NCBI RefSeq assembly: GCF_003991155.1 | Contig: NZ_CP031293.1 | From: Escherichia coli | GTDB taxonomy: Bacteria; Pseudomonadota; Gammaproteobacteria; Enterobacterales; Enterobacteriaceae | DNA: 64,000 nucleotides | Direction: 5' to 3' (one strand) | Shown here: one piece after another, positions 31,609-35,153 of the stretch | Layout of the letters: each line of letters starts with the position of its first letter | How positions within the stretch are numbered: position 1 is the stretch's first letter | Translations under genes and position numbers: made by a program | The notes under the pieces: model-generated | The model's database searches: none | What the model was told of the DNA's origin: nothing | Seen by the model: the letters and a program-made list of their open reading frames with translations, nothing else

Positions 31609-31998
31609 ATGAGCAACGTACCAGCAGAACTGAAATACAGCAAAGAACACGAATGGCTGCGTAAAGAAGCCGACGGCACTTACACCGTTGGTATCACCGA
31701 ACATGCCCAGGAGCTGTTAGGCGATATGGTGTTTGTTGACCTGCCGGAAGTGGGCGCAACGGTTAGCGCGGGCGATGACTGCGCGGTTGCCGAATCGGTA
31801 AAAGCGGCGTCAGACATTTATGCGCCAGTAAGCGGTGAAATCGTGGCGGTAAACGACGCACTGAGCGATTCCCCGGAACTGGTGAACAGCGAACCGTATG
31901 CAGGCGGCTGGATCTTTAAAATCAAAGCCAGCGATGAAAGCGAACTGGAATCACTGCTGGATGCGACCGCATACGAAGCATTGTTAGAAGACGAGTAA
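31609..31998 (+). CDS. gcvH: Glycine cleavage system H protein (lipoyl carrier), 129 aa
   Basis: ORF 31606..31998 trimmed to [17 protein letters not shown]; lipoyl-lysine motif region ESVKAAS. Confidence 0.95.
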
Positions 31999-32116
31999 CG
32001 GCTTTATTCCTCTTCTGCGGGAGAGGATCAGGGTGAGGAACTTTTACGCCTCACCCTCACTCTCTTCGCAAGGAGAGAGGTTCACAATTCACTGCACGTT
32101 TCAGGAACCATCGCTC

Positions 32117-34990
32117 ATGACACAGACGTTAAGCCAGCTTGAAAACAGCGGCGCTTTTATTGAACGCCATATCGGACCGGACGCCGCGCAACAGCAAGAA
32201 ATGCTGAATGCCGTTGGCGCACAATCGTTAAACGCGCTGACCGGCCAGATTGTACCGAAAGATATTCAGCTTGCGACCCCGCCGCAGGTTGGCGCACCGG
32301 CGACCGAATACGCCGCGCTGGCGGAACTCAAGGCTATTGCCAGTCGCAATAAACGCTTCACGTCTTACATCGGCATGGGTTACACCGCCGTGCAGCTACC
32401 GCCGGTTATTCTGCGTAACATGCTGGAAAATCCGGGCTGGTATACCGCGTATACTCCGTATCAACCTGAAGTCTCCCAGGGCCGCCTTGAGGCACTGCTC
32501 AACTTCCAGCAGGTAACGCTGGATTTGACTGGACTGGATATGGCCTCTGCTTCTCTTCTGGACGAGGCCACCGCTGCCGCCGAAGCAATGGCGATGGCTA
32601 AACGCGTCAGCAAACTGAAAAATGCCAACCGCTTCTTTGTTGCTTCTGACGTTCATCCGCAAACGCTCGATGTGGTCCGTACTCGTGCTGAAACCTTTGG
32701 TTTTGAAGTGATTGTCGATGACGCGCAAAAAGTGCTCGACCACCAGGACGTCTTCGGCGTGCTGTTACAGCAGGTCGGCACTACTGGTGAAATTCACGAC
32801 TACACCACGCTTATTAGCGAACTGAAATCACGCAAAATTGTGGTCAGTGTCGCCGCCGATATTATGGCGCTGGTGCTGTTAACTGCGCCGGGTAAACAGG
32901 GCGCGGATATTGTTTTTGGTTCGGCGCAACGCTTTGGCGTACCGATGGGCTACGGTGGCCCACACGCGGCATTCTTTGCGGCGAAAGACGAATACAAACG
33001 CTCAATGCCGGGCCGTATTATCGGTGTATCGAAAGATGCAGCTGGCAACACCGCTCTGCGCATGGCGATGCAGACTCGCGAGCAACATATTCGTCGTGAG
33101 AAAGCGAACTCCAACATTTGTACTTCCCAGGTGCTGCTGGCAAACATCGCCAGCCTGTATGCCGTTTATCACGGCCCGGTTGGCCTGAAACGTATCGCTA
33201 ACCGCATTCACCGTCTGACCGATATCCTGGCGGCAGGCCTGCAACAAAAAGGTCTGAAGCTGCGCCATGCGCACTATTTCGACACTCTGTGTGTGGAAGT
33301 GGCCGACAAGGCGGGCGTACTGGCGCGTGCCGAAGCGGCTGAAATCAACCTGCGTAGCGATATCCTGAACGCGGTTGGGATCACCCTTGATGAAACCACC
33401 ACGCGCGAAAACGTGATGCAGCTTTTCAGCGTACTGCTGGGGGATAACCACGGACTGGACATCGACACGCTGGACAAAGACGTGGCTCACGATAGCCGCT
33501 CTATTCAGCCTGCAATGTTGCGCGACGACGAAATCCTCACCCATCCGGTGTTTAATCGCTACCACAGCGAAACCGAAATGATGCGCTATATGCACTCGCT
33601 GGAGCGTAAAGATCTGGCGCTGAATCAGGCGATGATCCCGCTGGGTTCCTGCACCATGAAACTGAACGCCGCCGCCGAGATGATCCCCATCACCTGGCCG
33701 GAATTTGCCGAACTGCACCCGTTCTGCCCGCCGGAACAGGCCGAAGGTTATCAGCAGATGATTGCGCAACTGGCTGACTGGCTGGTGAAACTGACCGGTT
33801 ACGACGCCGTTTGTATGCAGCCGAACTCTGGCGCACAGGGCGAATATGCGGGCCTGCTGGCGATTCGTCATTATCATGAAAGCCGCAACGAAGGGCATCG
33901 CGATATCTGCTTGATCCCGGCTTCTGCGCACGGAACTAACCCCGCTTCTGCACATATGGCAGGAATGCAGGTGGTAGTTGTGGCATGTGATAAAAATGGC
34001 AACATCGATCTGACTGACCTGCGCGCGAAAGCGGAACAAGCGGGCGATAATCTCTCCTGCATCATGGTGACTTATCCTTCCACCCACGGCGTGTACGAAG
34101 AAACGATCCGTGAAGTGTGTGAAGTCGTGCATCAGTTCGGCGGTCAGGTTTACCTTGATGGCGCGAACATGAACGCCCAGGTCGGCATCACCTCACCGGG
34201 CTTTATTGGCGCGGACGTTTCGCACCTTAACCTGCATAAAACTTTCTGCATTCCGCACGGTGGCGGCGGCCCAGGTATGGGACCGATCGGCGTGAAAGCG
34301 CATCTGGCACCGTTTGTGCCAGGTCATAGCGTGGTACAAATTGAAGGCATGTTAACCCGTCAGGGCGCGGTTTCTGCGGCACCGTTCGGTAGCGCATCCA
34401 TTCTGCCAATCAGCTGGATGTACATCCGCATGATGGGCGCAGAAGGGCTGAAAAAAGCAAGCCAGGTGGCAATTCTTAACGCCAACTATATTGCCAGCCG
34501 CCTGCAGGATGCTTTCCCAGTGCTGTATACCGGTCGCGACGGTCGCGTGGCGCACGAATGTATTCTTGATATTCGTCCGCTGAAAGAAGAAACCGGCATC
34601 AGCGAACTGGATATTGCCAAGCGTCTGATCGACTACGGTTTCCACGCGCCGACGATGTCGTTCCCGGTGGCGGGTACGCTGATGGTTGAACCGACTGAAT
34701 CTGAAAGCAAAGTGGAACTGGATCGCTTTATCGACGCGATGCTGGCTATCCGCGCAGAAATCGACCAGGTGAAAGCCGGAGCCTGGCCGCTGGAAGATAA
34801 CCCGCTGGTGAACGCGCCGCACATTCAGAGCGAACTGGTCGCCGAGTGGGCGCATCCGTACAGCCGTGAAATTGCGGTATTCCCGGCAGGCGTGGCAGAC
34901 AAATACTGGCCGACAGTGAAACGTCTGGATGATGTTTACGGCGACCGTAACCTGTTCTGCTCCTGCGTACCGATTAGCGAATACCAGTAA
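32117..34990 (+). CDS. gcvP: Glycine dehydrogenase (decarboxylating), glycine cleavage P protein, 957 aa
   Basis: ORF 32033..34990 trimmed to [30 protein letters not shown]. Confidence 0.95.
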
Positions 34991-35012
34991 TTTACTGATT
35001 CGACTATCTTCT

Positions 35013-35036
35013 AAAGGCGCTTCGGCGCCTTTTTAG
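35013..35036 (+). terminator. Intrinsic terminator after gcvP
   Basis: aaaggcgcttcggcgcc hairpin followed by ttttt. Confidence 0.75.
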
Positions 35037-35117
35037 CTTGTTAATAAAGTGCGCTTTGTGTGTCGGATGAAGCGTAAATATAAACTCCTGGAGTTCAATA
35101 TATGACAGGAGCGCCAG

Positions 35118-35142
35118 GCCTGATGAGCGGGGCGCATCAGGC
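35118..35142. repeat. REP-like palindrome just downstream of the bglA stop
   Basis: gcctgatgagcggggcgcatcaggc, a perfect 8-bp-arm palindrome resembling REP cores. Confidence 0.45.
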
Positions 35143-35153
35143 ACATCGGGTAA

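Follow-up and report, generated by a model that had tools for sequence, protein, structure and literature searches.

The spacer between gcvH and gcvP in the gcvTHP operon of Escherichia coli raises the question of what a strongly structured stretch of RNA is doing between two co-transcribed genes, and whether it is a regulator dedicated to this operon. In the window analysed here (64,000 nt of contig NZ_CP031293.1), the gene for the glycine cleavage H protein, gcvH (31609–31998, + strand), ends with the stop codon TAA at 31996–31998, and the gene for glycine dehydrogenase (decarboxylating), gcvP (32117–34990, + strand), begins with ATG at 32117–32119, both genes being identified from their ORFs and from RefSeq naming at matching E. 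coli loci. The spacer between them occupies 31999–32116 (118 nt), the coordinates and length also given by the first-pass annotation of this DNA, which saw two strong inverted repeats immediately upstream of the gcvP start and suggested that they act as an intra-operon attenuator or processing site setting the stoichiometry of GcvP relative to GcvT and GcvH. No repeat feature is annotated between gcvH and gcvP in the MG1655 RefSeq record, and a literature search on the gcvH/gcvP intergenic region found nothing on this spacer. The supplement of a nitrogen-starvation interactome study has only proteomics rows for GcvH and GcvP. By BLAST, 5425 of the 5426 complete E. coli genomes contain the spacer, with 90–100% identity, and the matches are always flanked by annotated gcvH and gcvP.

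Both of the inverted repeats are present (cctcttctgcgggagagga at 32009–32027 and gggtgagg...cctcaccc at 32031–32056), but a third hairpin and an overall palindrome had been overlooked. We refer to the three hairpins, all read on the + strand, as H1 (32008–32027; tcctcttc / tgcg / ggagagga; −10.8 kcal/mol), H2 (32030–32057; agggtgagg / 10-nt loop / cctcaccct; −15.7 kcal/mol, the most stable stem of the three) and H3 (32060–32079; ctctcttc / gcaa / ggagagag; −12.2 kcal/mol). Together they make up an imperfect palindrome of 72 nt (32008–32079, no strand assigned), whose arms at 32010–32038 and 32049–32077 are 29 nt each and 72% complementary. The minimum free energy of the spacer RNA is −44.3 kcal/mol, compared with −29.9 ± 3.4 kcal/mol for 200 dinucleotide shuffles (z = −4.26), none of which folded as low, and the predicted fold consists of H1, H2 and H3. 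A long single hairpin, in which the 5' arm of H1 pairs with the 3' arm of H3 and H2 sits on top, is almost isoenergetic (−43.5 kcal/mol) and is the centroid structure.

The palindrome does not reach the gcvP start. It is separated from the ATG by 37 nt, within which lies a distinct, conserved translation-initiation leader for gcvP (attcactgcacgtttcaggaaccatcgctc; 32087–32116, + strand) with its SD sequence AGGA at 32103–32106, outside the repeat, so that 'immediately upstream' was loosely worded. Among 37 Enterobacteriaceae this leader, the last 30 nt before the ATG, has a median identity to the window of 93%, as against 52% for the remaining spacer. A GTG at 32033, in the gcvP frame, was considered as an alternative start; it sits within H2 and is disfavoured, as it is the ATG at 32117 that aligns with GcvP residue 1 in enterobacterial orthologues and that comes after the conserved leader and SD sequence.

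The arrangement of the hairpins recalls a family of dispersed repeats known as BoxC, whose function has been debated since the 1990s, mostly in terms of DNA triplexes, and whose earlier literature is said to include work by Bergler in 1992, Bachellier in the 1990s and Hoyne and Maher in 2000. The family, of about 20–30 copies per E. coli genome, is also known as PIT and, more recently, as TMECO, with the consensus CCCTCNCCC-N3-6-GGGNGAGGG-N3-GGGNGAGGG, in which at most one mismatched pair is allowed; 23 strict copies are found in MG1655, with inverted pairs at five sites (Holder et al., 2015, PMC4666352). Judged from its palindrome, from an HMM search and from the contents of the orthologous slot in other species, the structure in the gcvH–gcvP spacer is a mutationally decayed inverted pair of such units. 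The strict TMECO consensus has no match anywhere in the 64-kb window, and the element does not figure among the 23 units published for MG1655. An HMM built from those 23 units, none of which is at the gcvH–gcvP locus, gave just two matches in the window (128 kb searched), at 32017–32038 on the + strand (E = 0.012) and at 32080–32050 on the − strand (E = 4.1); the second match is weak alone, and its adjacency and inverted orientation to the first add support. The left unit reads TCCTCTTCT-GC-GGGAGAGGA-TCA-GGGTGAGGA, and erosion has gone further in the right unit. In these terms H1 comprises the left unit's pyrimidine arm and the first of its purine arms, H2 pairs the second of these purine arms with the complement that the inverted right unit supplies, and H3 is the right unit in opposite-strand reading, a layout that agrees with that of the MG1655 gcvP–ygfF pair. 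The canonical BoxC pair beyond gcvP is present in some strains and absent from others.

The repeat nature of the spacer is invisible to BLAST with the spacer itself. At E ≤ 10, neither the whole spacer nor its 77-nt core matched anything in 5,426 E. coli genomes other than the orthologous locus, where it is single-copy, and the relationship was seen once the canonical version of the element in the same slot of Enterobacter cloacae was used as query. This query matches a median of 19 and a maximum of 34 places per E. coli genome, and all four of the matches that were inspected are intergenic (flgG–flgH, phnK–phnL, yhjG/yhjE and upstream of flgN). As the spacer element fails the strict consensus yet is homologous to the family, we file it as a decayed derivative and not as a canonical unit. 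What looked like a dedicated gcv regulator is a decayed copy of a dispersed repeat, one too degenerate to have entered the published list.

Published data indicate that transcripts do end in the spacer. Term-seq of MG1655 lists a dominant RNA 3' end at 3,049,097 (−), classed as 'orphan', the flanking sequence of which is that of the spacer (Adams et al., 2021, PMC7815308, Suppl. file 1). It is listed three times in a file that has one tab per growth condition, and its scores include 412,219 and 171,112, in the range of 6S RNA (392,534) and at the higher value ~11-fold stronger than the end at the terminator of the gcvP operon (3,046,123; 36,065) (Adams et al., 2021, PMC7815308). The position is 63 nt past the end of the gcvH coding sequence (3,049,160), which places it 4 nt beyond the foot of H2, within the 5' arm of H3. 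The alignment used to carry coordinates over from the K-12 to the window spacer has no gaps, the stems are identical in both alleles, and the coordinate convention was checked on the gcvP terminator, where the listed end comes directly after the T-run. The measurement is from K-12 and presumably applies to the window strain, in which the equivalent end would be at 32061 (+ strand). At other BoxC copies in MG1655 (847200, 3781065, 3959467 and 632098), Term-seq ends likewise lie 3–10 nt past the hairpin. The earlier suggestion of a transcript-end or processing site within the operon is therefore borne out in MG1655. The part concerning attenuation and GcvP stoichiometry fares less well: DirectRNA-seq counts in 800-nt intervals are 190 for the gcvT body, 220 for gcvH with the spacer and 5' gcvP, and 159 for the gcvP body. 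The fall in RNA coverage into gcvP is modest, at most 15–30%, and most transcription reads through, so that a transcript end is present but strong attenuation is unsupported.

Two terminator scans of the + strand of the spacer found no site, neither H2 (which runs on into TCACTCTCTT) nor H3 being followed by a U-tract, and a canonical intrinsic terminator is rejected on these grounds. No Rho-dependent region starting within 3,048,600–3,049,099 is listed (Adams et al., 2021, PMC7815308, Suppl. file 2); a nearby 3' end internal to gcvP has a Rho score of 1.31 and is marked 'No' (PMC7815308). One could still suppose that the spacer is a partial, non-canonical terminator, at which RNA polymerase would release some transcripts at H2, with the pyrimidine-rich UCACUCUCUU behind it, lowering gcvP relative to gcvTH. 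We consider this unlikely. The 3' end does fall directly past the strongest GC-rich stem, the orthologous slot holds a canonical intrinsic terminator in many γ-proteobacteria, and Rho offers no listed alternative at the spacer. However, neither scan found a U-tract, the end is just 4 nt from the stem, nearer than is typical of intrinsic release and unlike the gcvP terminator end, which follows a T-run, and the drop in coverage into gcvP is small. Furthermore, the statement in Holder et al. (2015, PMC4666352) that cites the reporter tests of the Maher laboratory gives PIT elements as having no promoter or terminator activity and as leaving RNA polymerase unaffected.

Cleavage by RNase III or another endonuclease would be a different route to the same end. 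Here the long imperfect hairpin would be cut, splitting gcvTH from gcvP mRNA or freeing a small stable RNA containing H2. The near equality in energy of the long-hairpin and three-hairpin folds speaks for such a site, as does the position of the mapped end within the 3' arm of the long stem, and a very stable small product would fit a Term-seq signal on a par with that of the 6S RNA end. Nevertheless, the long stem is interrupted, with its 72% complementarity, and co-transcriptional folding would be expected to favour the three local hairpins, and we regard this explanation as highly improbable. Still less credence can be given to a trans-acting small RNA made from the gcvH 3' region. The 3' end is abundant and discrete in all three growth conditions, but a scan of 6 kb around the site against Rfam 15 at a permissive E-value gave no credible match, the best overlap being whalefall-1 with 19.8 bits, far below the gathering score of 37 (E = 0.15). 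In addition, there is no U-tail for Hfq, the sequence is not kept outside Escherichia, and a RIL-seq-based predictor assigns gcvP.gcvH.IGT an sRNA probability of 0.003–0.004, with 12–20 chimeric reads (PMC8175672), by which an Hfq-dependent sRNA is disfavoured.

Our preferred reading, to which we give a probability of roughly 60%, is that the spacer element provides an exonuclease-resistant 3' end for gcvTH RNA, acting as a REP-like stabiliser with a mild differential effect. Transcribed within the gcvTHP mRNA, the element would fold into its three stem-loops, and the central H2, being the most stable and preceded by H1, would form a nuclease-resistant 3' end. RNA that had been cut or terminated further downstream would be trimmed in the 3'→5' direction, with stalling a few nucleotides past H2, and the product would be an abundant gcvT–gcvH RNA, whole or as a stable fragment, with its end at window position 32061. 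Most transcription would continue into gcvP, and the element would thus be a mild 3'-end stabiliser, neither a switch nor a strong attenuator. Trimming is the probable source of the 3' end, endonucleolytic cleavage and weak termination being the other candidate origins. One objection is that an exonuclease arriving from downstream would meet H3 (−12.2 kcal/mol) first, yet the listed peak comes after H2; an end after H3 may be hidden, because the curated Term-seq list retains only the top peak per 100 bp (PMC7815308). Another is that, with a fall into gcvP of at most 15–30%, any putative effect on the GcvT/H:GcvP ratio may be negligible.

The orthologous spacers of 79 other species (Salmonella, Klebsiella and Shigella were not among the loci) vary in length from 8 to 445 nt and differ widely in what they contain. 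A clean BoxC element occupies the slot in E. cloacae, E. asburiae, Pseudocitrobacter and Buttiauxella, a more diverged one that of Siccibacter, RIT691 and one MAG, and canonical BoxC units are likewise found there in Pluralibacter and RIT691. Strict TMECO units lie inside the slot of six species (L009, L017, L022, L025, L028 and L047), with flanks that align, and BoxC-type units are found in the variable part of the spacer in ~14 species. The canonical slot element reads CCCTCTCCC-loop-GGGAGAGGG-N3-GGGGTGAGGG ... CCCTCACCC-N3-CCCTCTCCC-loop-GGGAGAGGG, of which the E. coli spacer is a visibly eroded version. Applied to 10 BoxC-type spacers, RNAalifold again predicts the three hairpins, with compensatory changes at 7 of 24 pairs; such changes are expected for any palindromic repeat family and alone are no proof of RNA function. 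In other genera the slot is filled by different families. According to a motif classifier run on the 79 spacers, REP/BIME units are present in Citrobacter, Lelliottia, Trabulsiella, Kluyvera, Enterobacter quasihormaechei and others, and ERIC/IRU sequences are present in C. koseri, C. youngae CCUG, Kluyvera and others. In Photorhabdus, Providencia, Serratia, Pectobacterium, Yersinia nurmii, some Pantoea, Shewanella and Aliidiomarina, a GC-rich hairpin with a T-run stands 4–18 nt past the gcvH stop, and a strict hairpin plus U-tract just past gcvH occurs in 18 of the 79 spacers, whereas shuffled spacers gave 4.4 on average and never more than 10. The spacers of Erwinia and Rosenbergiella, at 23 nt and 8 nt, lack a hairpin, which is therefore not essential at this junction, a point that also counts against the stabiliser model.

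As far as such sequence comparisons go, what is conserved is the gcvH–gcvP slot and not its sequence. The first-pass annotation had held that its proposal would be refuted if the paired regions were not conserved among related species; the sequence is indeed not kept across related genera, but a stem-loop at the junction recurs in non-homologous forms. It is conceivable, though we hold it to be less probable than not by some distance, that the junction is under convergent selection for 'any stable stem-loop', an ancestral leaky intrinsic terminator having been replaced repeatedly in the Enterobacteriaceae by whichever palindromic family was active (BoxC, REP or ERIC), and that BoxC elements are in general domesticated stem-loops that define or insulate RNA 3' ends within and between operons. 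If so, the invariant stems and hypervariable loops seen within E. coli would reflect selection on RNA structure.

About as tentative is the rival view, that the element is a neutral relic, a BoxC pair, newly inserted or inherited, that is decaying in a non-coding position where it is tolerated, the 3' end being a by-product of a stable hairpin with no selected role in gcv. A decaying copy should fail the strict consensus and be single-copy by BLAST, as this one is and does; in sister genera the slot is taken by the unrelated REP and ERIC sequences, and in Erwinia and Rosenbergiella it is empty; the polarity in RNA coverage is merely modest; and earlier tests of PIT elements gave no function, in the citation of them by Holder et al. 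(2015, PMC4666352). Against this, the element is kept in all but one of the complete E. coli genomes, its stems being invariant and its loops variable in the typical alleles sampled, and the recurrence past gcvH, in distant taxa, of non-homologous stem-loops that include true terminators points to a constraint on the slot.

The variation within E. coli was examined in eight typical alleles, comprising the window, K-12 and one allele for each remaining BLAST identity class. Six sites vary among them, five in the H2 loop at 32039–32048 (one of these an indel) and one, a C/T SNP, in the H3 loop; no stem position varies. Of the 77 nt of the core, 18 are in loops; for substitutions spread evenly along it and treated as independent, the probability of all six falling in loops is ~1.6 × 10^-4. 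Stem positions do differ in a ninth sequence (L003), which comes from a divergent lineage of Escherichia, carries TTA loops and is nearer to the canonical unit. In strain VTB96775v (L091), a 52-nt segment spanning H2–H3 is duplicated in inverted orientation. Invariant stems fit selection on the stems; they equally fit hypermutability of the loops together with palindrome-templated repair, and to that extent the invariance could be DNA-level maintenance of a palindrome and not RNA selection as the stabiliser model would have it.

These observations bear on the possibility that the element acts primarily at the level of DNA, where the palindrome, or a potential intrastrand triplex, would extrude as a hairpin or cruciform in replication and cause local instability, with any RNA effects secondary. 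TMECO loci have been tied to raised local variability, and a single-strand triplex forms in vitro (Holder et al., 2015, PMC4666352). In the spacer, polymorphism is concentrated in the central loop, a hot spot with five variable sites in 10 nt; the inverted H2–H3 duplication and the variable presence among strains of the canonical BoxC pair beyond gcvP are of the same kind. On the other hand, the spacer copy fails the triplex consensus, and by a register count of the sequence ~6 of 9 triplets would remain possible; moreover, no triplex footprint was obtained in vivo, and double-stranded DNA gave a duplex signal only (Holder et al., 2015, PMC4666352). Instability is also a property compatible with an RNA 3'-end effect, and both may hold. 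As a primary explanation of the element, we think a DNA-level role improbable.

The repeat family itself was already known, and the RNA 3' end was present, unremarked, in a public supplement; new here are the assignment of this degenerate element to BoxC, its link to the RNA 3' end and the recognition that the slot is filled differently by lineage. For gcv biology, the repeat accounts for an unannotated, very strong 'orphan' 3' end within gcvTHP, and it suggests a REP-like route by which gcvTH RNA could outlast gcvP RNA. As the coverage shows mostly read-through, the practical consequences are modest. For the BoxC family, the coincidence of several copies with RNA 3' ends, taken with the filling of one slot by terminators, REP, ERIC or BoxC, leads to a concrete RNA-level hypothesis.

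Compared with its own family, the spacer element has the BoxC/PIT/TMECO block order (pyrimidine arm, short loop, purine arm GGGAGAGG, 3-nt loop, purine arm GGGTGAGG), is an inverted pair, as at five sites in MG1655, and is strictly intergenic. It differs in its degenerate arms (TCCTCTTCT / GGGAGAGGA / GGGTGAGGA on the left and worse on the right), in its second loops, which are TCA and not TTA or CCG, in its centre of just 10 nt and in having no close copies elsewhere in E. coli genomes. A functional parallel is offered by the U-less stem-loops with 3' ends directly downstream that shield E. coli transcripts from PNPase and RNase II (Dar & Sorek, 2018, PMC6061677). In both cases a stable stem-loop without U-tract is followed, a few nucleotides on, by a precise steady-state 3' end; that class, however, was defined on Rho-dependent gene ends (Dar & Sorek, 2018, PMC6061677), whereas the spacer has no listed BCM-sensitive region and separates two genes that are co-transcribed. 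The element can also be set beside leaky intra-operon intrinsic terminators: a hairpin plus U-tract occupies the same position, 4–18 nt past the gcvH stop, in the slot of Photorhabdus, Providencia, Serratia, Pantoea and Shewanella, but the E. coli element lacks the U-tract and was missed by both terminator scans.

A further comparison is with the REP/BIME elements. Intra-operon REP elements, such as that of malE–malF, reportedly act as stabilisers of mRNA 3' ends, a finding attributed to Newbury, Higgins and colleagues in 1987. The gcv spacer belongs to another sequence family, direct reading of the window spacer revealing no motif of the REP consensus (GCC[G/T]GATG... / ...CATC[C/A]GGC), and stabilisation of gcvTH mRNA by it is putative. 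Otherwise the two are alike: each is a dispersed palindromic repeat in an intra-operon spacer, forming a stable U-less stem-loop with a discrete 3' end just downstream, which in the spacer is H2 with an end 4 nt after it, and in Citrobacter, Lelliottia, Trabulsiella and Enterobacter quasihormaechei it is REP elements that fill the gcvH–gcvP slot.

Polymorphism within E. coli has a hot spot in the 10-nt loop of H2, the central hairpin of the repeat element in the gcvH–gcvP spacer: among eight E. coli alleles, the loop (window 32039–32048) contains four substitution sites and one indel, while both arms of the H2 stem are unchanged across the same eight alleles. A rearranged form of the spacer is found in E. 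coli VTB96775v (NZ_CP178634.1, 855369–855642), in which gcvH and gcvP are separated by 170 nt rather than by 118 nt. The additional 52 nt duplicate the segment comprising H2 and the third hairpin, H3, in inverted orientation, which generates a far longer perfect hairpin (−94 kcal/mol), and the arrangement resembles the product of a template switch with the palindrome at its centre.

Several genomes of Citrobacter, Kluyvera and Enterobacter carry ERIC/IRU elements, either full or internally deleted, in the slot between gcvH and gcvP (comparison loci L005, L007, L016, L026, L027 and L040), and in the spacers of C. koseri and Kluyvera the ERIC element adjoins a REP unit. Differing repeat families appear to have landed in this slot repeatedly. 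Just 5' of the gcvP ATG lies a 30-nt block, attcactgcacgtttcaggaaccatcgctc (window 32087–32116), whose identity is 90–100 % in most of 37 Enterobacteriaceae (median 93 %), independently of which repeat stands upstream. On sequence comparison, this conservation exceeds what a Shine–Dalgarno sequence alone would be predicted to need, and it is possible that the block has an extra role, for example as a putative translational control site.

No glycine riboswitch is known at the start of gcvT in E. coli. In the Term-seq maps of MG1655 RNA 3' ends, a strong 3' end is located 65 nt within gcvT (MG1655 3,050,602, minus strand), and the tab for a second growth condition places a strong 3' end in the gcvT 5' leader (MG1655 3,050,723, minus strand), the scores of these ends being 80 000–106 000 (Adams et al., 2021; PMC7815308). 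By our own offset from the gcvT coordinates, the two positions correspond roughly to window 30555 and 30435, respectively. Together they hint at premature transcript ends where the operon begins.

At the other end of the operon, gene order in the window strain (34991–35153, compared with locus L001:1903–2168, minus strand) places bglA directly after gcvP and its terminator, aaaggcgcttcggcgccttttt (about 35013–35035 in the window), whereas in K-12 ygfF and a canonical inverted BoxC/TMECO pair (units 10 and 11 of Holder et al., 2015; PMC4666352) lie between the gcvP terminator and bglA. The window-type arrangement is present in 2349 of 5426 complete E. coli genomes, and the gcvP–bglA interval is a presence/absence polymorphism adjoining a canonical BoxC pair. 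A further case of intra-operon BoxC expansion is the flgG–flgH spacer of E. coli Z1323CEC0003 (L082, locus positions 1357–1685), which contains four strict TMECO units in the form of a tandemly duplicated, outward-facing pair.
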